A stretch of DNA of 32,000 bases from Candidatus Saccharimonadota bacterium (GTDB lineage: Bacteria > Patescibacteriota > Gracilibacteria > BD1-5 > UBA2023). Location: contig OY970170.1 of NCBI GenBank assembly GCA_963706795.1, positions 420,001 through 452,000 of the forward strand, written 5' to 3'. The notes under the pieces were generated by a model. The model saw nothing but the letters and a program-made list of their open reading frames with translations, was not told the origin of the DNA and did not search any database. Positions 3,794 through 31,999 of the stretch are shown in pieces. Made by a program: the position numbers and the translations under genes. Numbering within the stretch: the stretch's first letter is position 1; the number at the start of each line of letters is the position of its first letter.

Positions 3794-4519
3794 TTAATGG
3801 TTTTGAATCTTGGTCTTTGAAGGCCATTTATCCTTAATACGAGCAAGTTCACCGATATAGATCATCCACTCGGTCAAAAAATTCTCATATTGATCCTTGA
3901 GCTTGGTAGTGAATGACGCAGTATCATTAGAATAACTCGTCACTACATTGCTCGTCGCAATGAGGAGAGCAATGTCACGGTAAGCATTCATCTTGGTTTG
4001 TGCGAGACCTTGACACTGATTGCCGCCTTGCAAAAATACCGGCGTAGCACCATCCGTTGTGACTCCTCCCGAAAATGAAGCGATGGTTTCTCTGAGTGGA
4101 TTTCCTGCAGTTTCGAGGTCCGAACAGACCTTGAGATAGCGCTTAAAATAGGTGGGGCTTGGACTTGTGAGATCGAACCAGTTTTTGATTTTTGTACTCA
4201 TTGCGAGTACATCCTTTGATTTGGTTTGCTGGAATTGCTTGAGTTCTTGTTTGATTTCTTTGTCGATTTTTTGGAACTCGAGATCGAGGACAACTTGATA
4301 GGCAATATCCTGCGGCAGCTTGACTCATTCTGGACAAACAAAATTCTCGATATTGCGGGGGTTTCCGCTTTTCACTGCTTCTAAACACTGAGTGATTTGA
4401 CCTGAATACTTGCTCTCGAGCTTTGGAGCGGCAAATGCATGAAACACAAAAAAACCAGCGAGCAACACACCAAAAAGTGTGGTCGCAAGTCAAAATACGA
4501 ATCGTATTAGTCTTTTCAT
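3794..4519 (-). CDS. secreted or membrane-anchored hypothetical protein, 241 aa under table 25
   Basis: Track ORF 3794..4201 extends upstream in the same frame through TGA codons at 4325..4327 and 4490..4492 to ATG 4519. The N-terminus MKRLIRFVFGLATTLFGVLLAGFFVFHAFA looks like a signal peptide or TM anchor. Stop is TAA. Confidence 0.75.
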
Positions 4520-4788
4520 TTACGGAAAAATCGAGAAAAAATCCGCTTGATGATACCTTCTTTTTTTGGCTTTTCAACACCGAAGACGAGCATACGGAGA
4601 ACGGAACCAATGCTGTGTTTATCGGATTCTTGGAGGATTTTTTCTTTAGCCTGCTCTACTGCTTGGTCCGATTTTTTGATACCATAAATCGATGCGACGA
4701 TACCACCGAGGATGAGTCCAGTGACGAGGGCATCCATTTTTTTGATACCCCTTTTTGTGAGTGCTTTATTGCTGCCTTGGCCAAACAT
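4507..4788 (-). CDS. small membrane protein, 93 aa (possibly YtxH-like)
   Basis: Track ORF 4516..4788 stops at a TGA; read as Gly, it ends at TAA 4507..4509. One hydrophobic helix (ALVTGLILGGIVASIYGI). The start ATG overlaps the hsp20 TAA (TAATG). Confidence 0.55.
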
Positions 4789-5225
4789 TATGATTCGAGC
4801 TTGTTAATCTTGATGGTCTTTGATGGGAATGTGAGTTTTGCAACGCTGACGGTCAGGAGATTGTTCTCCATGGTTGCATGTATCTTATTAAACGCGAGGT
4901 TTTCAGGAAGAATGACCGAGCGTGAAAATGGCCCAAAGAAGCATTCTTCTACCAAAATACGTCCTGATTGTGCATAGACATCAGGGCGAACACGCTCACC
5001 AGAAATCGTCAGAATATTGCGAGTGACAGTAATATCAATATCAGCGATATCCACTCCCGCAAGCGGTGCAACGATGGTGATGTTTTCTTCGAGGTCGAGA
5101 ATATCGAGCGCAACCTGCCCCACATCAGCATCCGGAAGCTCTTCGTCCGAGTGCTCAATATGAATATGGCCATCGCCATGATGCGACTCCTCTTCGTCTT
5201 CTTTTAAGTGGAAAAACTTGAACAT
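4788..5225 (-). CDS. hsp20: Hsp20/alpha-crystallin family small heat-shock protein
   Basis: 145 aa with an alpha-crystallin domain pattern (ITIVAPLAGVDIADIDITVTRNILTISGER ... GPFSRSVILPENL ... NNLLTVSVAK). Stop is TAA. Confidence 0.9.
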   Translation of the reverse strand: MFKFFHLKEDEEESHHGDGHIHIEHSDEELPDADVGQVALDILDLEENITIVAPLAGVDIADIDITVTRNILTISGERVRPDVYAQSGRILVEECFFGPFSRSVILPENLAFNKIHATMENNLLTVSVAKLTFPSKTIKINKLES

Positions 5226-5265
5226 AGTGCGGAAAATACCCCGATGGTACTTCGACCTCCGGTTT

Positions 5266-5294
5266 TTGCAAATTTTTCACGAGCATGATACACT
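5266..5294 (+). promoter_or_regulatory. sigma70-like promoter for pilC (TTGCAA-N17-TACACT)
   Basis: -35 TTGCAA at 5266..5271, 17-nt spacer, -10 TACACT at 5289..5294. The pilC ATG at 5301 is only 7 nt downstream, which implies a leaderless or near-leaderless mRNA. Confidence 0.35.
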
Positions 5295-5300
5295 CACTGT

Positions 5301-6503
5301 ATGCAGATGAATGCTCTCACCGCCCGACTTTCGTCCCTCTTTAGAAAACCCGAGTCCACTGGGGTTGATATTGCGTCGACCGCAAATACCACGAGCATCA
5401 AGCTCTCACGCCAAGAAAAGATCTTTTTTCTCGATACGATCGGCAGCCTCATCGAGGCAGGAATCCCAATTATCAAAGCGCTTCAGCTTCTCTATTTTCA
5501 GTCCAAGAAAAAGTCCATCCAAAATCTCGCTGCGCTTCTCAAAATAGAGATCGAGAAGGGGCGAAGTCTCTCAGATATTGCTCGGGATCTCCCAAAAGTA
5601 TTTTCGGTTTTTGATGCTGCGATGTTTGAAATGGGAGACGCCACAGGACAAATCGGATCGATATTTCAGACGCTCACAAATAAAGAAGAAAAGACTCTGG
5701 AGCTCGAACGAAAAGTTATGGGTGCGCTCGTCTACCCGATTGCCATCGTGATGGTCGCGTTTTTGATGATTACAATCCTCCTGGTCTACGTCATACCTCG
5801 TATCGAGACAATCTATAAAGAAGCTCACACCAGCCTCCCTGCTCTCACGACTGCTGTGATCGGAGCTTCGCACTTTCTGCGGGATTACGGACTCTTTGTG
5901 CTTGTAGGATTCGCTGCAATTGGTTTTGGTCTCAAGCTCGCGCTCCGCGAACCCAAAGTACGAAAAGAAGTCGATCGATTCATTCTCACGATTCCACTCT
6001 TTGGGGGAATTATTAAAGCAAAGATTCTTGTAATTTTCGCTGAATTTTTGTCTATTTTGCTCGATTCTGGGATTACGATCTACCGAGCACTCGACATTGT
6101 CGCCGCAGCCACGAACAATCTCTATTATCAGGAAGAAATTCAAGGACTCATCCACGATATCCGCACCGGTAAGCACCTATCACTCGCCATGGGCGGAGAC
6201 TACCTCGAAAGACGCATCAAATGAGAAGTTGTCACCGGCAAAGAAATGCAAGCATCGGCTCGTCGCCTCGATTGCTTCACTATCGAACTCTCCACAGCCG
6301 TAAAGGTCGGGGAACAAACTGGAACCCTCGCCGCTATGCTCGGCAAAGCCTCCAAACGCTACGAACGCGAAATCGATACAACCGTTAAATCGCTCTCGAG
6401 TCTCTTGGAGCCCATCGTCATCATCGTCATTGGAGCGATTGTTGGAGTGATTGTTCTCGCTATTATGATGCCATTCTTTAATATGGTGCAGGTAATTAAG
6501 TAA
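5301..6503 (+). CDS. pilC: type IV pilus assembly / type II secretion platform protein (PilC/GspF family)
   Basis: 400 aa once TGA 6222..6224 is read as Gly, joining track ORFs 5301..6224 and 6246..6503 (same frame). Two GspF-type repeats, TM helices and the typical C-terminus LLEPIVIIVIGAIVGVIVLAIMMPFFNM. Stop is TAA. Confidence 0.9.
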
Positions 6504-6511
6504 TACATTTT

Positions 6512-6880
6512 ATGAATCAAAGCACTTCGCAGCTCATAGAAAGCCTCGAGATCGAACTTCTACAGCCCGATACACGCTGATCTACCGAGCGACTCAATGA
6601 ACTTCTTACGGATGACTTCTTTGAATTTGGACAATCAGGAAATATTTATGTCAAAGCCGATACACTGGACCATGTTCCAAAAGAATCCAGACGAACTTTC
6701 CAGATGAGTGATTTTAAAATAACCGAATTATCTGAAGATGTCATGCTGGCTACTTACTATATAGAGTTCACAGACATATCTACCAGTGAGCGGAAGGAAT
6801 CACTACGAAGCTCCATTTGGAAATTCCGAGATGGACGATGGCAAATGGCTTTCCATCAGGGAACACTCATTCGGAAATAA
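6512..6880 (+). CDS. DUF4440 / NTF2-like (SnoaL-like) domain protein, 122 aa
   Basis: Absent from the standard-code track because of in-frame TGA 6578..6580. The pattern LL.PD.R.S.ERL..LL.DDFFEFGQSG...LATYY...SLRSSIW.F.DG.WQMAFHQGT matches the DUF4440 family. Stop is TAA. Confidence 0.75.
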
Positions 6881-6881
6881 T

Positions 6882-6907
6882 AAAAACGCACCATATGGTG
6901 CGTTTTT
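6882..6907. terminator. bidirectional rho-independent terminator between the DUF4440 gene and prfA
   Basis: AAAAACGCACCAtaTGGTGCGTTTTT, a perfect palindrome with A/T runs on both sides, lying between convergent genes. Confidence 0.7.
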
Positions 6908-6929
6908 ATTATTTAGGATTTTATTATTC

Positions 6930-8003
6930 TTATCCTCCACTCGCCTGTGCAAGTTTTGCGCTCTGGTCTGCGATTTGAAGAGCTTCGATAATGTGTCCGA
7001 GTCTTCCTTGCATGATGGCAGGAATATTGGAGAAACTCTCGTTAATGCGATGATCCGTCACGCGATCCTGTGGGAAATTATAAGTTCGGATTTTTTCAGA
7101 GCGGTCTCCGGTTCCAACCTGTGCGAGACGAACAACACCAAGTGCGGCATTGCGCTTTTCTTCTTCCATAGCGTAGACGCGGGCTCGCATGATTTCGAGG
7201 GCCTTCATCTTGTTTTGAAGCTGGGAACGTTCGTCCTGACATTCTACAACGATACCCGTTGGCATATGCACCATACGGATCGCGGAATTTGTCTTGTTGA
7301 CGTGCTGACCTCCAGCTCCACTGGCTCGGGATACTGAGATATCGAGGTCTTCATCACGGATTTCAACATCGAGAGCTTCCACCTCGGGCATGACTGCAAC
7401 CGTGATAGTACTCGTATGAACGCGACCTTTGTTTTCAGTTTCTGGAATTCGCTGAACACGATGGGTTCCTCCTTCAAATTTAAATTTGGAATAGGCTCCG
7501 TACCCCGAAACCTTGATGACCATTTCTTTGATTCCACCAACATCCGCACCGTTTTCGTCGAGGATTTCGAGTTGAAATCCTTCTGCCTGCGCATAGATCA
7601 TATATGCATTAGCAAGCTCGCGACCAAAGAGTGCAGCTTCGTCACCACCGGCTCCGGCTCTGATTTCGAGGATGATGTTTTTTTCATCATTTTTATCCTT
7701 GGGAAGCAGGGCGAGTTTGAGCTCTTCTTCGAGCGTCGAAATACGTGCTTCGCCTGTTGCAAGCTCTTCTTTGGCCATTGCGATCATGTCGGGATCTTTT
7801 TCGTTCGCAAGAAGATCCTTCGCATCCTGCATATTGGTGATGAGGCCTCGGTATTCGAGATAGAGTCCTACGGATTTTTCGAGGGACTTCTTTTTTTGCA
7901 TGACCTCTTTAAGCTTTTTTGGGTCAGCATAAATCGCACCGTCTTCGAGAGACTTTTCGAGTGCGTTATATTCGTCTACTAAATGGTCGAGTTCGAACTT
8001 CAT
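6930..8003 (-). CDS. prfA: peptide chain release factor 1
   Basis: 358 aa from ATG 8003. GGQ motif (SGAGGQHVNKT) and RF1-type PxT tripeptide (RIPETENKGRVHTS). The 62-codon upstream extension in track ORF 6930..8189 runs into tRNA-like DNA and is rejected. Stop is TAA. Confidence 0.95.
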   Translation of the reverse strand: MKFELDHLVDEYNALEKSLEDGAIYADPKKLKEVMQKKKSLEKSVGLYLEYRGLITNMQDAKDLLANEKDPDMIAMAKEELATGEARISTLEEELKLALLPKDKNDEKNIILEIRAGAGGDEAALFGRELANAYMIYAQAEGFQLEILDENGADVGGIKEMVIKVSGYGAYSKFKFEGGTHRVQRIPETENKGRVHTSTITVAVMPEVEALDVEIRDEDLDISVSRASGAGGQHVNKTNSAIRMVHMPTGIVVECQDERSQLQNKMKALEIMRARVYAMEEEKRNAALGVVRLAQVGTGDRSEKIRTYNFPQDRVTDHRINESFSNIPAIMQGRLGHIIEALQIADQSAKLAQASGG

Positions 8004-8092
8004 ATTTGAGAAATGCGGAGATTGTACGATGACCTCGCGAAAAGTCCAATTCTTTTGACAATAGAGGGATAATCGATACTCTCGGAAACGTT

Positions 8093-8120
8093 GCCCTGAG
8101 GGCGGAATGGTAGATGTGCG
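8093..8120 (+). pseudogene. truncated copy of the 5' part of tRNA-Leu
   Basis: GCCCTGAgGGCGGAATGGTAGAtG matches the first 24 nt of the intact tRNA-Leu at 8231 at 22 positions. It then diverges, and no matching 3' acceptor strand or foldable anticodon arm follows. Confidence 0.4.
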
Positions 8121-8230
8121 ACCTTGCGAAGCATGGAAGCCATACCCCCGAATACGAGCATCCGAACTCTGAAAGAGTCGGTGCGACATATGAGTGGGGT
8201 ACGCGGAATATTTGAAGATACGAATTACAT

Positions 8231-8314
8231 GCCCTGATGGCGGAATGGTAGACGCGGAGGACTCAAAATCCTCTTCCTTCGGGAGTGCGGGTTCGAGCCC
8301 CGCTTAGGGCACCA
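8231..8314 (+). tRNA. tRNA-Leu(CAA): tRNA-Leu, anticodon CAA
   Basis: Manual cloverleaf: acceptor GCCCTGA/TTAGGGC, anticodon arm GAGGA-CTCAAAA-TCCTC, long variable arm TCC-TTCG-GGA, T arm GCGGG-TTCGAGC-CCCGC, encoded CCA. Confidence 0.9.
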
Positions 8315-8613
8315 ATTGTTCAAAATTCTCGATATTCACGTTCAGACTTTACGTTCCTCGCTCGAAGTACTTACCAGTACATCTTCGCTTCGGTACTCAG
8401 TCTTCGCATGAATCTCTTCGTTTTTGAACAATTCACTAGGACACACTGTAGTAAATTGTTTTTGAAAACATCCCCAAAAGAAAGTCTTTAGACTTCTCAG
8501 AAACTGGCAAGTTTGTGTGAAAAGCGCGTACCGAAGCGAGACGTACCCATGCGCGTTGAGTGAGGAACACAGCTTTGAACGCAAAATTGACGTTTTATGA
8601 GAAGTCTACACCT

Positions 8614-8704
8614 GGAGAGATGGCAGAGTGGTTGAACGCGCTAGTCTCGAAAACTGGTATACCAGTCTCTGGTATCGAGGGTTCGAATCCCTCTCTCTCC
8701 GCCA
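8614..8704 (+). tRNA. tRNA-Ser(CGA): tRNA-Ser, anticodon CGA
   Basis: Acceptor GGAGAGA/TCTCTCC, anticodon loop CTCGAAA, long variable arm ATACCAG-TCT-CTGGTAT, T arm GAGGG-TTCGAAT-CCCTC, encoded GCCA end. Confidence 0.9.
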
Positions 8705-8723
8705 GAAAAAATCAATGAAACTT

Positions 8724-8747
8724 AAATACCCTATGAGGGTATTTTTT
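8724..8747 (+). terminator. rho-independent terminator after tRNA-Ser
   Basis: AATACCCT-atg-AGGGTATT followed by TTTTT. Confidence 0.6.
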
Positions 8748-8810
8748 AGAAAAAAGTGATAGAACTCGAATCGAGGGTAAAATGCACATGCGTTTTAAGA
8801 GTCCAACAAC

Positions 8811-8838
8811 TTGGACTCTGGCCCGAGGTGTCTATAAT
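8811..8838 (+). promoter_or_regulatory. sigma70-like promoter (TTGGAC-N16-TATAAT) for the ClbS-like gene
   Basis: Consensus -10 TATAAT at 8833..8838 and -35 TTGGAC at 8811..8816. The -35 sits in the 3' arm of a 9-bp perfect hairpin (AGAGTCCAA-caac-TTGGACTCT, about 8798..8819). The ATG is 12 nt after the -10. Confidence 0.45.
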
Positions 8839-8850
8839 TAGAGAAAAAAC

Positions 8851-9366
8851 ATGACTAGCATCCCACAAAATAAAGAGGAGCTTGTAGAAGCTATTAAATC
8901 TACATCTCAAAAATTAAGAGAGGATCTTGTCAGTATCCCTGATGGACTCACTCGCATCAAAGAGTTACATGGTCATGCCCAGGACACAAAGATGAGTGTT
9001 TGCGACCTTATCGCATACCTAGTTGGGTGGGGTGAATTAGTTATAAAATGGCACAAAATTAGAGAACAAGGAAAAGAGCCGGATTTCCCCGAAACAGGAT
9101 ACAAATGGAATGAGCTAGGAAAACTTGCCCAAAAATTTTATGACGATTATAAAAATGATGATTTTAAAACATTGCTAAAAAAATACGATAAGGTTGTGAG
9201 AGACATGCTTATATTCATCGAAGGAAAAACGAATAAAGAATTATATGGGGTGCCTTGGTATACAAAATGGACCATGGGTAGAGTTATTCAGCTTAATACG
9301 TCATCACCATATAAAAATGCTCGTAATAGAATTCGTATGTGGAAGAAGGAAAAGGACTGGATGTAA
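8851..9366 (+). CDS. ClbS/DfsB family four-helix-bundle protein (DUF1706)
   Basis: 171 aa with family hallmarks: DLIAYLVGWGELVIKW, DFPETGYKWNELGKLAQKFY, GRVIQLNTSSPYKNARNRIRMWKK. Stop is TAA. Confidence 0.85.
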   Translation: MTSIPQNKEELVEAIKSTSQKLREDLVSIPDGLTRIKELHGHAQDTKMSVCDLIAYLVGWGELVIKWHKIREQGKEPDFPETGYKWNELGKLAQKFYDDYKNDDFKTLLKKYDKVVRDMLIFIEGKTNKELYGVPWYTKWTMGRVIQLNTSSPYKNARNRIRMWKKEKDWM

Positions 9367-9496
9367 GGTTTGTTTATAGAGATTGACAATATGACAGATA
9401 AAAAAGTTGTTGAATACATAAATAAACAAAATTTCTAAGATGGACATGATCCGAAGCTCTGGAAACGCCCCTCTCTCCGCCATAACATATTAAATC

Positions 9497-9751
9497 ATGG
9501 TCAGCATCCAACGAAAGTGAGACTATCTCACTAAAGATCAGCGTTATAGCGCATGTGAAGCGATCATTTCGCATTTTCGGTCAGAATGAAACGAAGAAAT
9601 TGGTATGATTGCCGCTTGAGATTTTTTGGATGCAGTTCTCGAGGAAGTTGGTAAGGCGATCTACAAAAAAGGTATCGAAGACGCTCGAATGACCATGCGA
9701 GAATGATTTGAAAACCTCGAAGTCAATCTCGAGGTCCTCACTGAGCGATAG
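9497..9751 (+). CDS. DUF2164 domain protein, 84 aa
   Basis: Visible only under table 25, with in-frame TGAs at 9518, 9587, 9617 and 9704. The translation ...EEIGMIAAGDFLDAVLEEVGKAIYKKGIEDARMTMREGFENLEVNLEVL matches the DUF2164 pattern. TAG stop, followed by a terminator. Confidence 0.7.
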
Positions 9752-9763
9752 TCCAAAAACATA

Positions 9764-9789
9764 AAAACACCCTTCTCAGGGTGTTTTTT
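9764..9789 (+). terminator. rho-independent terminator after the DUF2164 gene
   Basis: CACCCT-tctc-AGGGTG followed by TTTTTT. Confidence 0.65.
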
Positions 9790-9971
9790 GAAGCTATTTG
9801 ATGAGTGTGGATATTCCGTATCTCTCGGACCCGATTACGAAGTGGCTGAACACCGAACTTCTCCAGACTCGGGGAAAATTGTATCTCTCAAAGCCCCAAT
9901 GACAAGCCATTTTTCAAATCCAAAACGATCGGCTGAATTCACTAAATGTCAATCGATTTACCCACTTCTTC

Positions 9972-9999
9972 TTGAAGACCAAAAGAGCTAGGATATACT
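9972..9999 (+). promoter_or_regulatory. sigma70-like promoter (TTGAAG-N16-TATACT) upstream of the structured intergenic region
   Basis: -35 TTGAAG at 9972..9977 and -10 TATACT at 9994..9999. No protein-like ORF follows on this strand. Confidence 0.35.
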
Positions 10000-10005
10000 C
10001 TCCGG

Positions 10006-10210
10006 AGCTGCCGTTCAAGTGCATCTGTCTCGCGTATTTTTCTCTACAATTCTACGCAATTCATGGGTTGGCCCGCTGGATACGGTCTCCGTACCGGCCA
10101 CGACAACCCTCAGGAATGATCTGATCCGTTCGGTGATTTCCGCTTCCTGCACACAGGGAACAAATGGAGATACAACGGTTCGGCGGGTCCAGTAAATTTA
10201 TTTGCTGGAT
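10006..10210 (+). ncRNA. candidate structured small RNA, class unknown
   Basis: A locally GC-rich, non-coding stretch in an AT-leaning genome.
- Hairpin TGGCC..GGATACGG-tct-CCGTACC..GGCCA at about 10068..10099.
- Hairpin CCCT-CAGGAA...TTCCTG...AGGG at about 10109..10160.
- Possible closing pairs CCGTT (about 10011) with AACGG (about 10173), and CCCGC with GCGGG.
- Bounded by a promoter-like element and a strong terminator.
- I found no match to tmRNA, RNase P or 4.5S consensus motifs. Confidence 0.35.
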
Positions 10211-10247
10211 TTTATAAACCCCCGTCTTTTGGACGGGGGTTTATAAA
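10211..10247. terminator. strong bidirectional rho-independent terminator
   Basis: Near-perfect palindrome TTTATAAACCCCCGTC-ttttg-GACGGGGGTTTATAAA. It abuts the TAA stop (10249..10251) of the 1373-aa gene on the minus strand and closes the ncRNA candidate on the plus strand. Confidence 0.8.
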
Positions 10248-10248
10248 A

Positions 10249-13200
10249 TTACATGTAGAGTTCTTCATCAAATGCGATTCACTGGCTTTCAGAATACGCA
10301 CGGTAGCGTTCGAGTTCTTCTGGGTTCATAGTGGCAGTTTGTGGCTTTTTTACTTTAGGAAGAGGCATATCGAGGATATCGATCGTCCTATCCATGACTC
10401 TTTGCATGAGATTTTGATAGACTGTTTCGGTCTGATTTCGGTAGATAACATTCTTCACCTTATCCTGAAGAATCTTGCTAGATTGCACATCAGGCGAGAG
10501 GAAAGCGGCTCTATCCTGAGGCGTGGTGCCAGCAAAGTGATATTTTTCTTTCCGCTGAAGAGTGTCGTAGTAGTCGCGGTAATGTGCCATGATTGGAATA
10601 CCCGCATCCTCGAGCTGCTCTACCCAATCAAGTGTAGTGTTAAATACATCCGGATCGAGCTTGAGATTTTGGTTTCGTATCCACTTCATGAGTGTGCTGA
10701 GAATATTCTCAAGCTGCCATAGACGATACTGATCTACCTCTTCTTTTGATCTAGTGCCATCAGAGAAAATATTCGAATTTCGAGCCTCACGATAGGTCTT
10801 GAGGAATGCCTGGAAATACTTCGTACTATCCGCATTACGGAATCCTCATCGTGCATTAAGACCAATTCCGTCAGCCTTAAGGAAGAATTGCTCGATCATC
10901 GGAGGATTATCGAGATACGATTCGATCTTGTCCTTTGAGATGCCGACTTCGGAATGCCCAGAAATAGGATCAATTTCGTAGAGCCCCTTTACAGCATTCC
11001 AATACGCAACATATTCTGGATATTTTGCTGGCTCTGTTTCTGCGAGGTAGCGGATTTCTGGATCGTCGGAGAGCGAGAGTTTTTTATGGATTTTCGCTCC
11101 GTAAGTATTCCAAAATGTCTCAGCGTATTCGATTGCATCTTTGATGCCTTTGTCCTTGTCCTGTACTGCCCGTGCCTTTCTGGCTTTCTCAATCTTGAGA
11201 TACGCGTCCAGCATTCCTGGATCATTTTTTGAAAGACGTGCAATGGTATTACGGAAAATATCAACGTTTCATGGACGTGCCATGAGATAGAGCTCAGGAT
11301 GATTGGTTCCTCGGAAAAAGCTTGATGGAATCTTTCAGAGTACTGTTGGGTCCATAAATTCAGTAGAATCCGTCATCATAAGTACAAAACCAAGCTTACG
11401 CATCTCAACTGCATCCCCTGGAGATCCCTTTGCCCAAATCTTTTCTATCGCTCCAGCAGCCGTAATTGGTTGACCGTCACGAATCTTGCCAAGAGCATAT
11501 TTGTATCGACCGGCCGCAGTAGCAAAATCACGTTCGGATTCATCACCACCCTTTTTAAATTGTGCTTCTGAGGCATTGATTCGGGCGATTTCAAATTTCT
11601 TACCCATCGTGGTAGGGATTGCAGCAATCTTCTCATCCGAAAGATATTTTAAATATTGTTCGATGAGCATAAGTTCAGTGATCGCAATCGTTGCACCTTG
11701 TGCGTCACGTATCTTTTTTGTATATTCTGCTTTAAGTACCTTGGCTCGATTGGTATCTCCTACTAATTTTTCAAAAAACACATCCTGTCAGCGGTATGCT
11801 TTAAGTTCTCAAACATAGAGTGAACCGTTGTCTTCAACAAGGGCATAGATCGCCGCAATGAGCTTGAACTGATCAAAATGTTTTGATTCCAAGAGATGAA
11901 GTACTTCGCCAGAGAGTGAACCCTTCATTTCCTGGAACTCTTTTTTATAATCATCGAAGACCTTATCACGTTCACGATCGGCAAGGACACGAGCTTCACG
12001 AGTAAGTGGATGTCATCGACCAAGTGTACGAACCATCAATTCATAAAACATTTCTTGTTCGATGAGCTTGTTCCCATGTGACAGCTTATGCTGTACCATA
12101 TGAGTAACACTTTGAAAGATATTTCCCACATTCGAAACACTGATTCCATTTCGCATCCATGATCCAAAAAATCCAGCAAGTCCACCATGTTCATGGAGAT
12201 GTTTTCCATGACCATGTTCGTCGTCATGTTTCTCATCCGGCTTAAAATCATCTTCGCTACGAGCATTAATTTTGAGAAGCTTCAGACGACTCACTAAGAC
12301 TGAATACGAAACATTATTCGCTACAAATTGCTCTCCACTGAGCTTATAGCTCTTTTCTTTGTCATCGATCTTTACTTTTGTTGCATAGCGAAATGAGACT
12401 TTATTTTCGGAAGCCGATGTGATTTCTAAAAATCCGTCACCTGCTTTGTTATAAAAATATTTTACTCATGGATGTTCTTCTCCGTGAGATGAATGCTCAT
12501 TTGGTACAAGTTTTTTATGCTCTGTATCCAAGAAAAGATCACTGAATTGAGATCGAAGCGATGGATCGCTTTGAATAAATGCGGCAAATTCACCGTAGTT
12601 ATCGCAGGGTTTAATACGTGCATATTGAGCTTTTGCAGTACGTTGATCAAGGGGTTTTTTGCTATTTTCTTGATCAAAAACAAAGCTGTAATAGAACCAC
12701 GTAAACGGACTCATGCCAGCCGGCGGACCAACAACCACTCCTGCTGGGGTCATGATTTTCATTGACTGAGGAGCTTCCGAAATGCTCTCAATTCGATAGA
12801 TTTCGTATGGTGCATGCTTCGATTGAAATGTCATTCCTGCCGCAATAGGAATTCCTACTCCATCCTTATCAAGATCATCAATATTTTTTTGAAGCTCAGC
12901 AAGCGAGAGAATATGTATCTTATCGCTCAGAGATTCGTCAATGTCTTCTCCTGACTGAAACGCTGCGGGATAGCGCTCCTTAAAGAGAGAAGAATTGGCC
13001 GAAAGTACAATAGAACTATCTACTGCCTCAATGAGTGATAACCTCAAGAGACGTGCAAAATCTCCGTACTCAAGTGTACGAGTCTGAACATGACTCGTGT
13101 CTTCGTATTTACGAACCCCATTTGATCCTGCTAATCGAAATTCGATTTCGGGGATCAATTCTTCTCCTTCTTTTTTTCCTATGGAGACAATTTCCATAAT

Positions 13201-14370
13201 CTCATTTCCCCCATTTTTTGTAGGGAAAACGACAAAACTTCCTGGGCCCATAGTCGTGATGCTTGCCCCTTTGGAATCAAGCCCTATAAGCCTGCCTCAG
13301 AGAAGCTTATCAAGCTCGTGGGCAAACGATTCAAAAGTAATTTCTCCGGTCTTTTCATCTGCAAAACGAGCATTTTCATTTGCGGTTTTATCTCCATTGA
13401 GTCGATCCGTTACGACATCTGTTTTAAGAAGTTCTTTTCCGATTGACCCATAGTCTGCATCATAAATCCATTCAAGTGGAATATCGGCATTTTCTTCTCT
13501 CAAGCTCGAAAAAAATTGCTCTTTATCCTCAGGAGTAAGGAATTTTTTTGTTTTTTCATCTGTTGCGGACAATCGACTATTGAGAACATCAATAAGTTTG
13601 TCCTTTACAGTTTTTTGATCTAGTCAGAGCGCCTTTGCCGCAGCAATCAAGCTCAAAAGCGGGATCGCGGGAGAATATTTCTCTAAAATCTTTCGGAGTT
13701 CTTTTGGTTCATTTTCAAAGGCTTCGGCAATCGTCTGCACTTGCGAAGTCAGAAGCGTACGACCTCCAGACTCCAAGAGGAGAATTGCTTTTTTTTGTTC
13801 TTCATTCTTGAGTCAAATATGAGCCTTAACGGTCTCTTCTTCACCTGCTTGAATTTTTTCTTTTTTGGCAGTTCTTCTGACAAGAGCATCAAATGATACC
13901 AGTCTGGCACCACGTGAAATATCTATTAACTCAGAAAACTCCATCTTTGAAACCGTAGACTCAAAGAGTTCATCAGTTTGGCTCGCAGAAAAACCGAGAC
14001 GTTTAATACGACTTCGAAGTACTGACTCTGCAGCATTGCGATCAAAAATAACCTTGCGCATTACGCTCTGTAAAACGGTAGCATTGAGCGAAGTAAGTCG
14101 GATAGGCTCATGAGCAATATTCGTACTGGTCAAATACGCCTCAATCATAGCAAGGAGCTCTAGACGGGTTTCTTCTTTTTTTTGAGCAGAAAGACTTGTA
14201 TCAGCAAGACGAAATACAAGTTTATTAAATTCAGCTTCGCGTAGGCACTTTTTATCAATAGCACGCTTAAGCGCCTCAGATTCTGTAAGCACATTTTTTG
14301 TGTTTTGTGCAGTTTTTGAGTTCGCCGCGACCTTGGCATTTCGGCTATTAGGGGAATTTTCTAGAGACAT
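10249..14370 (-). CDS. giant ORFan protein, 1373 aa under table 25
   Basis: Seven track ORFs (13813..14370, 13297..13572, 12466..13251, 12013..12294, 11335..11781, 10846..11214, 10279..10689) share one frame. I translated all gaps by hand and found only TGA (12 in total), with no in-frame TAA or TAG until 10249. An upstream in-frame TAA at 14401 fixes ATG 14370. There is no clear TM segment, and one His-rich patch (DEKHDDEHGHGKHLHEHGG). Confidence 0.85.
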
Positions 14371-14443
14371 AAGTGTGAAAGTTGCTAGGATTATACCCTT
14401 TTAGCGAGAATTGCGCAACAAACGAGAGCCAGAAGAATCTTGT

Positions 14444-14722
14444 TTATGATTTTTTTAAAATCCGAACAAGTTTTGTGCGATCACTTGCTCCCGAAATAAT
14501 CTCGATTTCCGAAGTTCTCACCCTGTAATAATCAGCAAAAAAGGAGATGAGCTCGGCGTTGGCCTTTCATTTTTCGGGGACAGCCTTTATATGCATTTTG
14601 TAGGTCCCATCCTCCATGAGTGCAAAAAATCCCGTTTTTGACTGACGGGGAACTACTCGAATCTGGAGATAGAGTGGCGTATCCCCAGATATTTTTGGGA
14701 ACGGATCTTGGATTTGAGACAT
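14444..14722 (-). CDS. yggU: DUF167 (YggU/UPF0235) family protein, 92 aa
   Basis: Missing from the standard-code track. TGA 14567..14569 falls on the invariant Gly of the family motif (..AVPEK-G-KANAELISFF.., compare E. coli PPVDGQAN). The C-terminus SGASDRTKLVRI matches the family. Stop is TAA. Confidence 0.85.
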
Positions 14723-14762
14723 TTGGAGCTATACTTCGCCCATCTTAGGTAAAAAATCAAAA

Positions 14763-15899
14763 ATGGCACGAATAGGAATCGACGCCCGCATGTTTGGAAG
14801 CACTTTCACCGGCATTGGCAAATACGTAGAACGCCTGCTTGAGTGACTCGCAAAGACTCCAAGTGAGGATACTTTTGTCATCTTTACGGACCCTGCACAT
14901 GAGCGAATAATCCAAAATCTTAGTGAAAAATTTGAGGTAATTCCGGTGGCTATCAAGCATTATTCACTCGCCGAACAAGTGGTATTCCCTTTTCTTTTAA
15001 AGAAGGCTCATCTGGATCTTGTACATTTCCCGCATTTTAATGCTCCGATTTTTTCGAGAATTCCTGCAGTAGTAACGATCCATGATCTCATTCTTTCGTT
15101 TTATCCTGGACGCTCAATTGCTTCAAGTATTAGACGGCGAGCCTACGAATGGACGATTGGTTCGATCACTAAGCGCGCAAAAAAGATCATCACCGTCAGC
15201 AATTACACAAAAAAAGACCTCACAACGCTCCTTGATATCTCCGAAGATAGCATCGAAGCCATTCATCTCTGAGTGGATACGAGCTTTTTTGATAAAGCGA
15301 GTCCCGAATCTATCGAAGCAGTCGCAAAAAAATATGGGATTCATGGCGAATACATCATGACACTCTGACTGCATCGCGAGCACAAAAATCTTCCTCGTCT
15401 CATCCGAGCATTTGGCAAAGTCGTCCAAAAAGGCTATGAGGGTCAACTCGTACTTGTCGGCAAAGAAGATATGCGATCTCATGATGTTCGAGATGCTATT
15501 ATTTGAGCTGGTCTGCGCAATCGCGTGATCCTCACGGGTTTTGTGGATAATGAGGATATTGCACCTCTTCTCCAGGGCGCTTCACTCTATGTGATGCCAT
15601 CGCTCTATGAGGGCTTTGGACTCCCTATTCTTGAGGCTATGGCAGGCGGAGTTCCTACTGCGGTAGCTAAAGCGACTTCGCTCCCTGAGGTTGGATGAGA
15701 TGCGGCAGCGTATTTTCATCCGCTACGCGAAGACGACATTGCTGATGTTCTCTATCACTGTGCCACCGACAAAAATACTCAGGAAGACATGCGGACGAAA
15801 GGCCTTGCTCGTGCACACGAGTTTACCTGGGAAAAGATGGCTGCACGAACTTACGAGATCTACCAAGAAACGCTTCAGGGCACAAAAAAACAGGGATAA
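14763..15899 (+). CDS. glycosyltransferase, GT4 family (Glycos_transf_1)
   Basis: 378 aa with 5 in-frame TGAs (by manual translation). Family features: ARIGIDAR..G.GIG.Y, VHFPHF, TIHDL, and the C-terminal catalytic region LYVMPSLYEGFGLPILEAMAGGVPTAVAKATSLPEV-G(TGA)-GDAA. The track shows only fragment 14946..15272. Stop is TAA. Confidence 0.9.
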
Positions 15900-15912
15900 T
15901 CCCTGTTTTTTT
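15884..15912. terminator. bidirectional terminator between the GT4 and FNR-like genes
   Basis: AAAAAAA-CAGGG-ataat-CCCTG-TTTTTTT overlapping the GT4 stop codon, between convergent genes. Confidence 0.6.
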
Positions 15913-15926
15913 AACTGTTCAATTTT

Positions 15927-16610
15927 TTAGAATTGTTCAAACTTAATTGCCGTCTTTGGAATTCCGCGTGCCTCGAGTTTCGCACGAGCATCCTTGACCA
16001 TGACTGGACTTCCACAGATATAGAATTCTTGGAATTTTAGAACTTCGTCAGCATTATCGAGGAATTCAGTGACGTAGCCTTTGGTGAATTCAGATTTCTC
16101 TTCACGACTGAGATACTGATCAAAAGTAAAATTTGGATTTCGTTTTACGATAGCATGAAGCTCATCTTGATAAAACACATCCTCGCTCGCTCGTACGCCA
16201 AAAATAAAATGACTCTTTGCACTAAAGTTACGATCTTCCAAAGCTCGGATTTGGAAATACAATGGAGCAAATCCTGTCCCTGTTCCAATAAAGAGACGTG
16301 GGATATCTCCATCAGTAAGCGTAAAGTGTCCAATCGGAGACATCGCATGAATTACTGCACCAATTTCAAGATCACAAATCTCCTTGCTTCCTCCACCACC
16401 CTCTGGAAGTCTTTTAATAATGAGCATATAGTCATTACCAGCAGCATATGCTATCGAATACGAACGCTTGAGTCCTGAAGGAAGTGTCAGTAGCAGATAC
16501 TGACCAGGCTTAAAAGGAAGTGGATTTTCAGCCGAGAGATGTAACTCGAACACATCATGTGTCAGTGAGATTTTTTTGGTAAGTGTAAATGGATACGTAA
16601 CGATGGCCAT
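15927..16610 (-). CDS. ferredoxin-NADP reductase-like FAD/NAD(P)-binding oxidoreductase
   Basis: 227 aa from ATG 16610. FAD motif RSYSIA and NAD(P) motif GTGTGFAPL, with an FNR-type C-terminal fold pattern (YICGSPVMV). Stop is TAA. Confidence 0.85.
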   Translation of the reverse strand: MAIVTYPFTLTKKISLTHDVFELHLSAENPLPFKPGQYLLLTLPSGLKRSYSIAYAAGNDYMLIIKRLPEGGGGSKEICDLEIGAVIHAMSPIGHFTLTDGDIPRLFIGTGTGFAPLYFQIRALEDRNFSAKSHFIFGVRASEDVFYQDELHAIVKRNPNFTFDQYLSREEKSEFTKGYVTEFLDNADEVLKFQEFYICGSPVMVKDARAKLEARGIPKTAIKFEQF

Positions 16611-16645
16611 AGAGAAATGTAGATCAAATAAACACGATAATATAC

Positions 16646-16676
16646 AAAAAAACTCGACCAAATCGAGTTTTTTTAA
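16646..16676 (-). terminator. rho-independent terminator ending the recA transcription unit
   Basis: On the minus strand: AAAAAAACTCGA-tttgg-TCGAGTTTTTT. It lies between the stop of the 102-aa ORF (16704) and the FNR-like start. Confidence 0.55.
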
Positions 16677-16703
16677 AGTTTATAAGTCTGAATTGAGATT
16701 TAT

Positions 16704-17012
16704 TTAAGCTATATCTCGATGGCTTGCATCATTGGCGGCACGGCTATTGTTAACGATAGCGACAACCTGTGACCAATAGGCTATTTTTTCTGGAGAAAGC
16801 TGACCTGAGAGACTCAAGATACTGAGAATATTGAGCGCTGAGGCGGGTCAAACAAGCTCTGAACGGATACCATCAAGGGTTAACTGAGCTCCAACACCCA
16901 TTCGAACCTGTTCTGCAAGTTCGGCAGCAGAGCGGGTTAAAGCTATCTCCTGGGATGGTGATTCGGAAGCAATAGAAGAAGCGGGGGTCGTGATTTGATT
17001 TTCGAGTGCCAT
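16704..17012 (-). CDS. hypothetical protein, 102 aa, downstream of recA
   Basis: A table-25 ORF (ATG 17012 to TAA 16704) with one in-frame TGA, starting 36 nt after the recA stop. No family recognised, and it does not resemble RecX. Confidence 0.45.
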
Positions 17013-17048
17013 GGATGAATTATGACTCGAAGTTTAACACAGAATCCC

Positions 17049-18041
17049 CTATTTTACAAATTCTGCCCGTACTGCTGTTTCGATCTCAGTTGCGAGTGCT
17101 TTATTTTGATTGAGGAATTCTCGTGCATTTTCTCTTCCTTGTCCAAGTTTTGTCTCACCGTAGCTGTAGAATGCTCCTGATTTTTTGATGACACCAATCT
17201 CAGAACCGATATCGAGGACTTCTCCAGAACGAGAGATTCCTTCGTTAAAGAGAATGTCGACTTCGACTTCGCGGAAAGGAGGTGCGACTTTATTTTTTAC
17301 AACCTTAATCTTTGCGCGGTTTCCTGTTGCTTCTTTGTCATCACCGGATCCACTTTCGATCTTTTCTTTGCGACGGATATCAAGACGCTGTGAAGCGTAG
17401 AACTTGAGAGCATTTCCTCCGGTCGTTGTTTCTGGACTTCCGAACATAACTCAGATCTTCATACGGATCTGGTTAATAAAGATCACTGTTGTGTTCGATT
17501 TTGAGATGACACCTGTAATTTTACGAAGTGCCTGACTCATAAGACGAGCCTGAAGTCCCATGAACGAGTCACCCATATTTCCTTCGATTTCTGCCTTTGG
17601 TACGAGCGCAGCAACTGAGTCCACAACGATGAGATCAACTGCTCCTGAGCGAACGAGTGCGTCTACGATTTCGAGAGCTTGCTCTCCGTAATCAGGCTGT
17701 GAGACGATGAGCTCGTCGATATTTACACCAATCTTGCGAGCATAGGCTGGATCGAGTGCATGTTCAGCATCGACGAATGCAGCTGTTCCACCTGCTTTTT
17801 GAACCTCGGCAATCGCATGGAGTGTGAGAGTAGTCTTACCAGAGGATTCTGGACCGTAGATTTCGACGATACGCCCTTTTGCATATCCACCTCCCAGAGC
17901 ATTATCAAGCGCAATCGAACCTGATGAGGTTGTCTCAACCTGCATACCGGTACGATCTCCGAGTTTCATAACTGAACCCGCTCCAAACTGCTTTTCGATC
18001 ATGGCGAGTGCGGCACTCAGTGCCTCTTTCTTGTTGTCCAT
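17049..18041 (-). CDS. recA: recombinase A
   Basis: 330 aa. Track ORFs 17451..18041 and 17049..17447 are one gene: TGA 17451..17453 encodes the conserved Gly in [30 protein letters not shown]. Walker A is GPESSGKTT. Stop is TAG. Confidence 0.97.
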
Positions 18042-18073
18042 AGGGAAGGTGAAAAAATGAAAACAAAACGGAG

Positions 18074-18118
18074 TATATGTACACTATATGTACTTTGCAA
18101 TACTTTTTATGTACTTTG
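18074..18118. promoter_or_regulatory. phased direct repeats in the recA upstream region (candidate operator/promoter)
   Basis: TATATGTAC occurs at 18074..18082 and 18085..18093 (11-bp period). TATGTACTTTG occurs at 18087..18097 and 18108..18118 (21-bp period). The ATGTACAT core is palindromic. A minus-strand -10-like TATACT sits about 30 nt upstream of the recA ATG. Confidence 0.3.
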
Positions 18119-18125
18119 TATATAT

Positions 18126-18359
18126 TTACTTTCTTTTTGAATAGAACTCTCGGATCGAAGTTGCTGATCCTGATGAGATGTTCCGACCTGTACATATAGT
18201 ACACTGATATATAGCCTTTTCTTCGTCAATAGTCTCTACGTCCACCTCCTTTACACAATCACGGCAGTAGTGAATAAACTCACCTCGTTCCGCCTCAAAA
18301 TTCTCTCGTTTCTTGCCGAAACTTGAGACATTTACGAGATCATTGTAACTAGAGGACAT
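18126..18359 (-). CDS. small zinc-ribbon protein, 77 aa
   Basis: Two CxxC pairs (CRDC ... CTIC). The first ATG is at 18359; track ORF 18126..18410 begins at an upstream TTG, so the start is uncertain. Stop is TAA. Confidence 0.5.
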   Translation of the reverse strand: MSSSYNDLVNVSSFGKKRENFEAERGEFIHYCRDCVKEVDVETIDEEKAIYQCTICTGRNISSGSATSIREFYSKRK

Positions 18360-20985: not shown

Positions 20986-22866
20986 CTATTTGCCGACATC
21001 TCCGATAATCTTTACACCTGCAGCCTTTGCTCCAACAGTAATGAGTGCAGTAGCCAGAGTAAATGTCACAATCGTATTTCGCATATATGCAGCTGCTACG
21101 AAAGAGAGCATGATACCTCCCATAATAGAATAAAACATAGACGGCTCTTGGATGCGAATCTGGTTGAGAGCATCAATGATATTTTTACCAACTCCAACAC
21201 TCAGAAGCATACCTTCATAAGCAGCGTGATTGAGCTGAGTACCCGCGAATTCGTTGAATTCAGCAATATACTTGTTCGTAGGAGCTTCTACGAATTGGAT
21301 GAGTCTTTTTGCACCTTCTTCTCCAGGATGTTTCTCTAGAATCATCGCCGACATTGCCAAGTAGAGTTCAGAGCGAGTTCCTTGATTCATTTTCTCAAGG
21401 TTAGTCTCACCACCTGTAATAGCATAGAAGGTAAGTAGTTGATGAACAGAGAATGTTTCACCGTTATTAAATTCTCCAAGATAGTCTTTAAATCAGAACT
21501 TATCAAGTGCTCATGACATCTCAGAAGCAAATCCGTCCTTTTTTGTCATATCTTCGAGTAATGCTTGTGCCTTTGGATTAAATTTTCGATCACGGAGCAC
21601 ATTACGATACTCTCAAACATTTGTTTTTCCTTCGGTACCAGTGATACGGAGAATTACCTCCTCATCTAATCAACGATCACGAAGAGTACCCATACTTTCA
21701 TCCACTACACCATCAAAGTTACCTGTGGTTGGATTTTTACGAAAGATAGTAGCAGTGAGATGAGTGATAAGTTCTTCTGGTTTACTCATATCAATGTTTG
21801 CAATCGCCTGTTGAACACGATCCAGTTTTTCATAACCGATACCCTTGTAGAGACTACGAAGTGATTCGGATAATGGCATGTTTTTCCAATTTGGATTGAT
21901 CGTTCTGAGATTTTCATCCATCCAATCAGCATTTGCAGAAAGTGCCTTCAGCATAAGGGAAGTTGCAGAGAGTTCTTTTGCGCCACCTGAGAGTCCAAGT
22001 TTCTCAGGATAGTCATTAAATTTCTGGAGTTCGTTGAAAGTCTTGTTTCGTACAACATCATACGAAAGAATTCGTGAAGCGAGACCTACAGCCTCATCCT
22101 CTGCCTTTCGCTCATCATTGCCCCAAGTTCCAGCGGCTACGCCCGCACCAATAGCACCCCAAAAACTTTTGAAGACCTTTCGGTTATTTCTGCGAATGAG
22201 GTGACGTGCCATAAAGCTGTACTCAGCCTCTTTGAGCGCTTCTTTTGAAGACTCTGGAACCTTTTCTTCGGTTTGTTTGATCTTTTCTTTGGCTTCTTCA
22301 ACAGTTTTTTTAGTCGGCAATTTACCACCACTGCCCTCATCAGGCTGAAATTCAAAAAGCTTTGCAAGGCTCGGAAAGGCATGAGAAAACCATTTTTCGA
22401 TCTTGTTCAAAAAAGAGTCCCAGATATCGCCTGTCTTTGAAAAAGCGGCTGTGATTTTTTCGATCAAATTAAGTCCGCTGGCATTTTTTACACCATCAAA
22501 ATTTGAGACACTTGCTGCAACTGCGGCACCTGCCGCCGCTGCAATACCACCCTTTTTGAGAGCAACTTCGATGTTTTTGTCATGTTCTTCTTCATTGGAT
22601 CCAGCAGATACTTCCTGTGCAAAAGCTTTTACATCTGGACTCGCTTCCGAAGACTTTGAAACCTCAGAGATAATATCCATATCATCGCTCGAAAGTTCTG
22701 TACGAAGTGCTTCTTGCTGCTCTCGGGCAGTTGCCTTGGCTTTTGAGATCTTTATAAGGCGCTTTGAGAGATCACTGTCTTGCTTTTCGATAGATTTTGC
22801 AAGATCGTGAAGTGCAGAACGCGGAGCTTCTGAGGCTACTGATTTATCTTTGAGAATTTCTGACAT
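20986..22866 (-). CDS. ORFan membrane protein F, 626 aa (last gene of the ORFan array)
   Basis: Track ORFs 21670..22920 and 20986..21390 share a frame, and the gap contains only TGA (4 in total). Start is ATG 22866, stop TAG 20986. Ala/Gly-rich hydrophobic stretches (GIAAAAGAAVAASV, WGAIGAGVAAGTWG) and a C-terminal TM hairpin (MFYSIMGGIMLSFVAAAYM-RN-TIVTFTLATALITVGAKAAGV). Confidence 0.8.
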
Positions 22867-22904
22867 AGGAGGGTGTAATGTACTTGCTTCGATGTTATCA
22901 CTTG

Positions 22905-22935
22905 GAAAATAAAAAGGCAAATATCTGCCTTTTTA
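22905..22935 (-). terminator. terminator-like hairpin between ORFan genes E and F
   Basis: On the minus strand: AAAGGCA-gatatt-TGCCTTT followed by TATTTT, starting at the gene E TAA stop. It could act as an attenuator or partial terminator within the array. Confidence 0.45.
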
Positions 22936-25473: not shown

Positions 25474-25499
25474 AGTGTGAGGATTACTTCTTGAGTGTA

Positions 25500-27791: not shown

Positions 27792-27819
27792 ATACGGGAA
27801 ATTTAAAATCTATTTATTT

Positions 27820-29781: not shown

Positions 29782-29837
29782 AGACGGACTTGAGGAATAA
29801 TTACTTCTTTAGTTTGCCATATATGCGTCTTCTATTG

Positions 29838-29866
29838 CAAAAAAAAGCACCTTTTGGGCGCTCTTT
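29838..29866 (-). terminator. rho-independent terminator after ORFan gene B
   Basis: On the minus strand: AGCGCC-caaaa-GGTGCT (one G-U pair) followed by TTTTTTTT. It lies in the 156-nt gap between genes B and C. Confidence 0.6.
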
Positions 29867-29937
29867 TTAGTGAAAATATATTGACTTCTCTATATAAATA
29901 GGTTTGGAATATTTTTGATATTCACTGGTTTTGCTCA

Positions 29938-31605: not shown

Positions 31606-31739
31606 AAGCTTCGTGAGTGGAACAACAGAACTATCGATGAGGTTCGTGATACGTTCCTCAAACGAATTTGCGCTCGTTTTCGCCTCTGTAGCTGCATCCT
31701 CTGGATTCGTTTTTTCTGGGGAAGATGTGAGAGCTTGGA

Positions 31740-31999
31740 TGTATTCACCTTTTCAGAGATGATCTACTGAACTTTTGAGGGTATCAGTCGCTCATCCAAG
31801 GAGATCCATCGTCTCAGGATTTGAGAGTAGACGATCCATTGTCCCAAGAACCACACCCTTTTTTTCGGTAGGCGTAAGATTATATTTTTGGAATTTAGAC
31901 TCGATATATGCCGCAAAGGCTTTTTGATGCTCTGACGAGAAAAGCTCCGATTTTACACCAGCAAATACTCGGTCGAGTTCATGAGAACGTGCAACCTCA
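31740..31999 (-). CDS. ORFan protein A, C-terminal fragment (gene continues beyond the window)
   Basis: A different frame from gene B gives a protein-like translation: ..RSHELDRVFAGVKSELFSSEHQKAFAAYIESKFQKYNLTPTEKKGVVLGTMDRLLSNPETMDLLGGATDTLKSSVDHLGKGE. It ends at TAA 31740..31742. Confidence 0.55.

Follow-up and report, generated by a model that had tools for sequence, protein, structure and literature searches.

The subject of this analysis is a large gene at positions 10249..14370 on the minus strand of a 32,000-nucleotide stretch of contig OY970170.1 (GCA_963706795.1, positions 420,001 to 452,000), which is referred to throughout as the window. Read from its first ATG (14370) to a TAA stop, it encodes a protein of 1373 amino acids. 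The frame runs from an upstream in-frame TAA at 14401-14403, which a first-pass annotation of the window had already seen, to the TAA at 10249-10251, and contains 11 TGA codons with no TAA or TAG between; the same annotation was right on the lack of TAA and TAG, but had counted 12 TGA codons. Other frames across 10249..14370 hold open reading frames (ORFs) of at most ~310 codons, even with TGA taken as sense. The 11 TGA codons, spanning 10279..13815 on the minus strand, lie at 13813-15, 13624-26, 13297-99, 12466-68, 12013-15, 11809-11, 11788-90, 11335-37, 11269-71, 10846-48 and 10279-81, and encode residues 186, 249, 358, 635, 786, 854, 861, 1012, 1034, 1175 and 1364, respectively. Under the standard code, the same frame is listed as seven pieces of at least 60 amino acids plus one of 50 amino acids. 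The proposal, made from the letters of the window, that the seven fragments are one gene read through TGA is borne out by the open frame, by collinear homologues and by purifying selection; we regard it as very nearly certain that the large gene is a real, single gene and a member of a family.

Comparison with orthologues shows that the window organism, a member of the Gracilibacteria (BD1-5 / 'Altimarinota', candidate phyla radiation), decodes UGA as glycine (translation table 25). In seven neighbouring genes, the orthologues carry GGN opposite the in-frame TGAs in 71 of 99 non-TGA cases and TGG in none; in the alignment of all family members, the residue opposite a TGA is glycine in 166 of 461 cases and never tryptophan. 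Residues 854 and 861 of the large protein fall in invariant glycine columns and residue 1175 in a column that is glycine in six of seven sequences. Each homologue contains 4-16 in-frame TGAs, most of which do not coincide in position with those of other members. Window RecA and DnaJ likewise have TGA at positions where the Escherichia coli proteins have glycine. The best matches to window RecA (84-91% identity) are named Candidatus Gracilibacteria, Altimarinota or Patescibacteria; prfA, encoding release factor 1 (RF1), is present at about 6930-8000 (minus strand), and the tRNA genes of the window are tRNA-Leu(CAA) and tRNA-Ser(CGA) only. Use of TGA as glycine extends across the whole window (1-32000), with five in-frame TGAs in the gene for a family-4 glycosyltransferase (GT4), five in dnaJ and 18 in the ORF at 22933-25530; standard-code gene calls across the window are fragmented because many genes carry such codons. 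The reassignment of UGA to glycine is said to have been described in 2013 by Campbell and colleagues and by Rinke and colleagues for SR1/Absconditabacteria and Gracilibacteria, and we see nothing different from table 25 as used in those groups, i.e. in-frame TGA occurs at conserved glycines and only TAA or TAG ends genes. The fragmented look of the large gene is thus the standard artefact of applying table 11 to a code-25 genome and is not new.

The same fragmentation is seen in at least one public protein collection. A Logan assembly (ERR12037365) has a contig that is 100% identical to window positions 8679-17483 and on which the large gene is called as 1373 amino acids; the corresponding 90%-identity protein cluster consists only of this product, with tryptophan at the 11 TGA sites, and six NCBI/ENA standard-code fragments of 185, 122, 93, 261, 91 and 148 amino acids in the public protein collection. 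That standard-code callers split the gene in this way would fit a reading in which it is not one gene, some of the TGAs being true stops within a pseudogene or a set of small ORFs. We consider this reading refuted, its residual probability being practically nil: TGA corresponds to glycine in both the family and its neighbours, the homologues are collinear, purifying selection acts over the whole length, and a 4.1-kb frame free of TAA and TAG is left to be explained. Nor do relatives keep the fragments as separate genes, an outcome that the first-pass annotation had raised as grounds for doubting a single gene.

Nine homologues were identified, all in Gracilibacteria assemblies (L003, L005, L008, L009, L010, L011, L012, L015 and L017, where L numbers denote loci of related genomes, with L005 being from GCA_965191385.1 and L008 from JANOQA010000155.1); seven are full or nearly full-length and two are partial. 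They were reached by several routes. In L003 and L005, the contexts of the closest RecA proteins include, at the equivalent position, a large gene to which no Pfam family is assigned; its products align with residues 727-1195 of the window protein at 22-25% identity (E = 1e-16 to 1e-18); the L005 homologue is already called by NCBI as a single product of 1475 amino acids, with no Pfam family. When the longest TGA-free fragment (276 amino acids) was used in an exhaustive HMMER search, two matches were obtained, at 32% and 43% identity, both of them pieces of homologues (L008 and L017). Pattern scanning of GTDB species genomes, using a 3-sequence alignment of the conserved core, yielded five more loci, L008-L012, and one further RecA context yielded L015. 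The L008 protein aligns with the window protein at 35.5% identity over residues 8-1243, spanning 10 of the 11 TGA positions, with the L008 contig ending before the last of them; L017 aligns at 39% identity over residues 369-763. The remaining homologues align by BLAST in the core only, at 22-26% identity. A hidden Markov model (HMM) of the family scores 1242 bits on the window protein, covers the members end to end and matches no other ORF in the window or the related loci. Five other RecA contexts (L002, L004, L007, L014 and L016) do not have the family at this locus.

Family proteins have lengths of 1,250-1,540 amino acids and, on alignment, fall into at least two or three subtypes: one comprising the window protein, L008 and L017; a second (subtype B) comprising L003, L005, L009, L010, L011 and L012; and L015, which is divergent. 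The window protein resembles its L005 and L008 homologues in length class, collinear layout, the conserved core and a locus beside GT4. Subtype B proteins have lineage-specific acidic, Gly-rich or Pro/Thr-rich linkers and a C-terminal coiled coil, whereas the window protein is without these and has a His-rich patch instead.

Beyond these relatives, searches were empty. Single-protein searches of Pfam, NCBIfam, PHROGs and PDB sequences gave no match at E <= 1; a word-indexed search of 5.8 billion proteins gave none with the full-length protein and, with a 4-sequence profile, only the gene's own N-terminal fragment. Pattern scans of genome and metagenome contigs with the full-length protein found no homologue, and a second metagenome scan, with an 8-sequence alignment, found nothing, the patterns probably being too degenerate. 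Pfam, NCBIfam and PADLOC models matched none of the family members (PHROGs being run on the window protein only), and PDB sequence searches with the protein, a whole-family profile and a core-only profile returned only coiled-coil noise, from the coiled-coil-like tail of subtype B, and one match at E = 0.4. The family thus has no model in Pfam, NCBIfam, PHROGs or PADLOC, and no solved relative detectable by HMMER. No match to the large protein was obtained by tblastn against 50,697 phage records. An apparent relative in IMG/VR (L013, UViG_3300045988_044795) was rejected as a chance match: the similarity is 29% over 96 amino acids, involves the window protein only, and the family HMM misses L013. 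The L013 protein (6480-11783, plus strand) is a 1768-residue standard-code phage protein with an 'HELGH' zincin-like motif, and its 96-residue match falls in the tail of the window protein. On these comparisons the large gene is not an ORFan but a member of a small, lineage-restricted, fast-evolving and unnamed family; the earlier description of it as an ORFan holds in that it is lineage-specific, but not in the strict sense, given nine collinear homologues, which, as far as sampled, come only from related Gracilibacteria.

The proportion of non-synonymous differences (pN) in family pairs is 0.29-0.45 along the whole length, compared with 0.71-0.81 for synonymous differences (pS). This marked deficit of non-synonymous relative to synonymous differences shows that purifying selection acts on the family. 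In the closest pair, the ratio of the non-synonymous to the synonymous rate (dN/dS) is ~0.16 for the whole protein, ~0.07 for the core and ~0.24 for the N-terminal half, dS being close to saturation. The pN of the N-terminal ~740 residues is ~2-fold that of the core in subtype B pairs and ~1.7-fold in the comparison of the window protein with L008. Across the loci, identity to the window is 84-91% for RecA, 74-79% for PrfA, 44-61% for GT4 and 44-60% for FNR; the large protein is 35-39% identical within its own subtype (35.5-37% to L008) and 16-19% identical overall to other subtypes, rising to about 24% over the BLAST-alignable core. Within subtypes, core identity is 55-77%, with pN far below pS. 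Judged by these values, the family diverges far faster than the genes around it while being selectively maintained. The gene is vertically inherited.

Conservation is unevenly distributed along the protein. With respect to the second subtype, it is near background to about residue 500, increases at the beta modules (~500-560 and 630-700), and peaks at ~750-1150. The N-terminal region (residues 1-~360; 13291..14370, minus strand) is fast-evolving: in windows of 50 residues, it shares 8-12% identity with the second subtype and 8-30% with L008. It begins with a polar Asn/Ser/Gln-rich stretch of a composition that is alike in most full-length members. Reading of the sequence by eye suggests that the N-terminal half is probably helical. 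The middle region (residues ~360-720; 12211..13293, minus strand), which is 31-43% identical to the closest relatives, contains small beta modules, e.g. 'GMTFQSKHAPYEIYRIE' and 'KYFYNKAGDGFLEITS', and in it Y638, F639 and G644 are invariant.

The His-rich patch, DEKHDDEHGHGKHLHEHGG (residues 712-730; 12181..12237, minus strand), is present as first described. Only its 'HLHEHGG' end is conserved, and only within the window subtype, all three members of which (window, L008, L017) retain it; L005, of the second subtype, has a partial version ('EHTEHGG'). The remainder of the patch occurs in the window protein alone. Metal binding, which the patch had been thought to permit, was rejected as a family-wide property because the patch is not conserved. 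A similar composition is seen elsewhere in the window, in the acidic, His-rich N-terminus of the HSP20 protein (EDEEESHHGDGHIHIEHSDEE; about 5100-5240, minus strand).

The conserved core (residues ~740-1150; 10921..12153, minus strand) is the sole part aligned by BLAST between subtypes. The window protein has the core blocks that define the family, 'G-x-LY-x-G', 'FF' and 'FW-xx-YG'. Thirty-four positions are invariant in the nine long members, 11 of these being glycine, 10 aromatic and 7 polar; the invariant polar residues, present in all nine, are S744, H761, E899, E944, R955, K962 and R1040. Following the core is a variable C-terminal tail (residues ~1151-1373; 10252..10920, minus strand), at the same place as which the second subtype has its coiled-coil-like segment.

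An AlphaFold2 model of residues 359-634, made with a 3-sequence alignment, has a mean predicted local distance difference test (pLDDT) score of 58 and contains two beta-hairpin modules, each followed by helices. Comparison of the beta modules with one another by hhalign gave E >= 0.027, and internal repeats in the large protein were rejected. Foldseek, the use of which on a predicted structure had been proposed at the outset, found no significant PDB fold for this model, the best match having E = 0.33 with a probability of <= 0.23; weak matches to Sm, LSm, Tudor and chromo domains were returned. These, together with the information-processing neighbours prfA, rsmA, uvrB, recA and dnaJ, would accord with a nucleic-acid- or ribosome-associated housekeeping factor that binds via small Sm/Tudor-like beta barrels. 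We consider such a role quite improbable, given that none of the fold matches is significant and that they derive from a model with a pLDDT of 58, that the protein is acidic overall (isoelectric point about 6, with 5.3-6.1 among members), and that it diverges much more rapidly than factors of this kind normally do. The model of core residues 862-1011, made from a single sequence, is of low confidence (pLDDT 44) and consists entirely of helices; from it we infer that the conserved core of ~400 residues may be helical.

The earlier statement that no domain, nucleotide-binding motif or transmembrane segment is recognisable in the protein agrees with our scans, in which none was detected using Pfam, NCBIfam, PHROGs, PDB, the Walker A pattern and Kyte-Doolittle hydropathy. 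Walker A ([AG]xxxxGK[ST]) and HExxH motifs are absent from all eight members scanned, and the family-library scans revealed no NTPase, nuclease, TIR, SIR2, protease, carbohydrate-related, adhesin, toxin or repeat domain. The segment H-K-L-S-H-G-N-K-L (761-769) resembles H-x-F-x-D-G-N-K-R within the Fic/Doc active-site motif, HxFx[DE]GN[GK]RxxR; a Fic/Doc assignment was rejected because the segment is without both motif arginines, its G-N is lost in L015 ('HRLEHSSKHH'), and there is no Pfam Fic match at E <= 1 in nine members. No 19-residue Kyte-Doolittle mean exceeds 1.4 in the window protein; maxima among the members are 0.85-1.58, with no hydrophobic segment. Heuristic inspection of members with a readable N-terminus found no Sec or Tat signal, lipobox, transmembrane segment, sortase motif or hydrophobic N-terminus. 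The product is accordingly predicted to be soluble, by its absence of hydrophobic segments, and the lack of an export signal in these members argues against a classically secreted effector.

A role in anti-phage defence or another conflict, in which a variable sensor half is joined to a conserved effector half, might be entertained in view of the juxtaposition of variable and conserved halves and the fast evolution, and also because the neighbouring GT4 passes the cut-off of the Pfam 'GT4-conflict' model (46 bits), although this score is below those of generic GT4 models. Such a role appears highly improbable: PADLOC matches none of eight members (E <= 1), the gene belongs to a housekeeping region with stable, vertically maintained synteny and not to a defence island, signatures of NTPases, nucleases, TIR, SIR2 and proteases are lacking, and there is no similarity to phage records.

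The order of genes around the family is conserved: uvrB, rsmA, a hypothetical gene, hsp20, a T2SS-F/PilC-like gene, prfA, a variable stretch, the large gene, GT4, an fnr-like gene, a hypothetical gene, recA and dnaJ. The full neighbourhood is seen in the window, L003, L005, L009 and L010, and the contigs reach parts of it in L008, L011, L012 and L015; in nearly every locus the family gene is beside GT4, between prfA and fnr-recA, and the neighbouring proteins are 45-90% identical across family genomes. The GT4 gene (14763..15899, plus strand; Glycos_transf_1 E = 7e-24, Glyco_transf_4 E = 3e-17) is adjacent or near-adjacent to the large gene wherever that flank is readable, with yggU intervening in the window and L015. 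In the window, yggU (DUF167; PF02594, E = 1.2e-19) is at 14444..14722 on the minus strand, 73 nt upstream of the large gene and on the same strand. The first-pass annotation had placed the large gene in relation to yggU; the adjacency is real in the window but is not conserved in relatives, only the window and L015 having it among readable loci, with opposite orientations of the large gene, and a conserved yggU operon or gene pair was rejected on this ground.

The constancy of GT4 invites the question of whether the large protein is a novel enzyme, or the partner of an enzyme, that acts with GT4 in the synthesis of cell-envelope glycans or glycoconjugates. In six loci (L003, L005, L009, L010, L011 and L012) a gap of 45-110 bp separates the end of the large gene from the start of GT4, both genes being on one strand and no strong hairpin or terminator lying between them, and the adjacency, or near-adjacency, persists even after inversion of the large gene; the few invariant polar residues of the core could also be accommodated. 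We nevertheless judge this unlikely: synteny extends over the whole region, so that simple inheritance may account for the adjacency; a conserved -10-like box, TATACT, precedes GT4 itself; the large gene and GT4 point away from each other in the window and L008; and no carbohydrate-related domain was detected. The window and L008 differ from the other homologues in this inversion relative to GT4, which coincides with the deepest split in the family. The -10-like box is located ~6-9 nt before the GT4 start in five of the six subtype B loci, with TACACT in L012, a spacing which suggests that GT4 transcripts may be very short or leaderless.

Our preference for an intracellular scaffold or adaptor, rather than an enzyme, is a tentative one, held with considerable doubt. 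The protein would be intracellular because no export signal is visible, and a scaffold or adaptor would be likelier than an enzyme because glycine and aromatic residues dominate its conservation, no catalytic signature is seen, and the protein has long variable regions and linkers. On such a model the large protein would stay inside the cell and act as a structural scaffold or adaptor, in which the conserved core could serve as a binding or assembly module, while the variable N-terminal half and the linkers might adapt to lineage-specific partners. Several considerations weigh against it. A catalytic site could equally be made up of the residues S744, H761, E899, E944, R955, K962 and R1040; surface or host-interaction proteins, too, typically evolve fast and have variable linkers; export by a non-classical route may be compatible with the sequence; and a known fold could have been missed because the models cover two fragments, with pLDDT values of 58 and 44.

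Some of these points lead to the proposal that the protein is a host-interaction factor, delivered by a non-classical route to the cell surface or to a bacterial host for attachment or predation, with the N-terminal half tracking host specificity. The very rapid divergence and the occurrence of two to three subtypes at a single locus, the lineage-specific acidic, Gly-rich or Pro/Thr-rich linkers of subtype B, and the polar N-terminus, which is alike in most members and could be an unrecognised export signal, are consistent with this proposal, as is the inference that Gracilibacteria are host-dependent and have many large proteins without known function (PMC6851277; PMC11452946). It is nonetheless unlikely in our view, as members with a readable N-terminus have no Sec or Tat signal, lipobox, transmembrane segment or sortase motif, the gene is among housekeeping genes with stable synteny and not in a variable island, and no adhesin, toxin or repeat domain was detected. 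The architecture, with a variable N-terminus and a conserved C-terminus, is moreover the opposite of that of polymorphic toxins; a polymorphic toxin or secreted effector with a trafficking domain was rejected as a candidate because the N-terminal half is the variable one, the C-terminal core is conserved and there is no toxin domain. A bolder proposal is that the core of ~400 residues is a fold or enzyme class without a characterised relative, and that the family is a lineage-defining component of host dependence (e.g. of a non-classical delivery or attachment apparatus), the N-terminal half of which sets host specificity; we think this unlikely to be right.

Closed genomes of Gracilibacteria have been reported to encode numerous unassignable proteins, including several large ones thought to mediate cell-cell interactions (Sieber et al. 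2019, PMC6851277). The family described here shares phylum and genetic code with those proteins; they, however, have signal peptides, toxin or invasin annotations or a hypervariable PTD repeat, whereas the present family has none of these and is unmentioned in that work. We rejected the identification of the large gene with the hypervariable gene of the same study, which is in a different genome and has the PTD repeat. A core that proved to be a new fold or interaction machine would be of real interest; as it stands, the family is one of many unannotated protein families of the candidate phyla radiation and an ordinary 'conserved hypothetical'. The practical point concerns annotation: gene calling with code 25 restores the 1373-residue protein and ties the large gene to nine relatives, thereby defining a compact family for study, characterised by its conserved locus and core and by a small set of invariant residues.

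An 18-bp perfect hairpin (10209..10249, minus strand; -28.2 kcal/mol, z = -8.1, with none of 200 shuffles folding as well) begins at the last base of the stop codon of the large gene, in agreement with the strong terminator described there at first reading. It is likely to be a transcription terminator, possibly bidirectional, and was missed by a simple terminator scan because it has no clean T-run. Upstream, a promoter-like element (14390..14418, minus strand), read by eye and below the threshold of a consensus scanner, has a perfect -10 TATAAT at 14390-14395, 19 nt before the ATG, and a weak -35 TTGCGC at 14413-14418, with a 17-nt spacer; it is at most a putative promoter. Between DUF2164 (9497-9751, plus strand) and the hairpin is a region of ~450 bp (9752-10208) in which neither code reveals a convincing ORF and no Rfam model reaches its gathering score, the sole sub-threshold match being to anti-hemB (29 bits compared with a cut-off of 49.5), which overlaps the hairpin.

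Further along the window, positions 20986-31998 (minus strand) hold five consecutive large ORFs of about 627-847 amino acids, the last of which runs off the window, with hydrophobic transmembrane-like segments. These ORFs are without similarity to one another or to the large protein, and paralogy with the latter was rejected. At the position of this array, relatives encode a different pair of large proteins (about 1300 and 900 amino acids), which evolve fast, are homologous among the relatives and show at best marginal similarity to the window array (first ORF, E = 0.004). The co-occurrence of the family with the array, raised as a possibility in the first-pass annotation, is therefore not supported, there being no clear counterparts of the five array ORFs beside the homologues.

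Two of the RecA contexts differ in the part of the locus that adjoins fnr. L002 (Logan SRR27217540) has the closest RecA (91%), with other neighbours at 46-49%, and here (4098-6063) fnr is followed directly by the T2SS-F gene, the block of prfA, the large gene and GT4 being missing from this position. L004 (GCA_042852035.1; Altimarinota) has two other Pfam-less proteins, of 1000 and 1059 amino acids, after fnr (12095-18282, minus strand), and the family HMM shows no relationship with either. Large lineage-specific genes thus seem to recur at the locus downstream of fnr.

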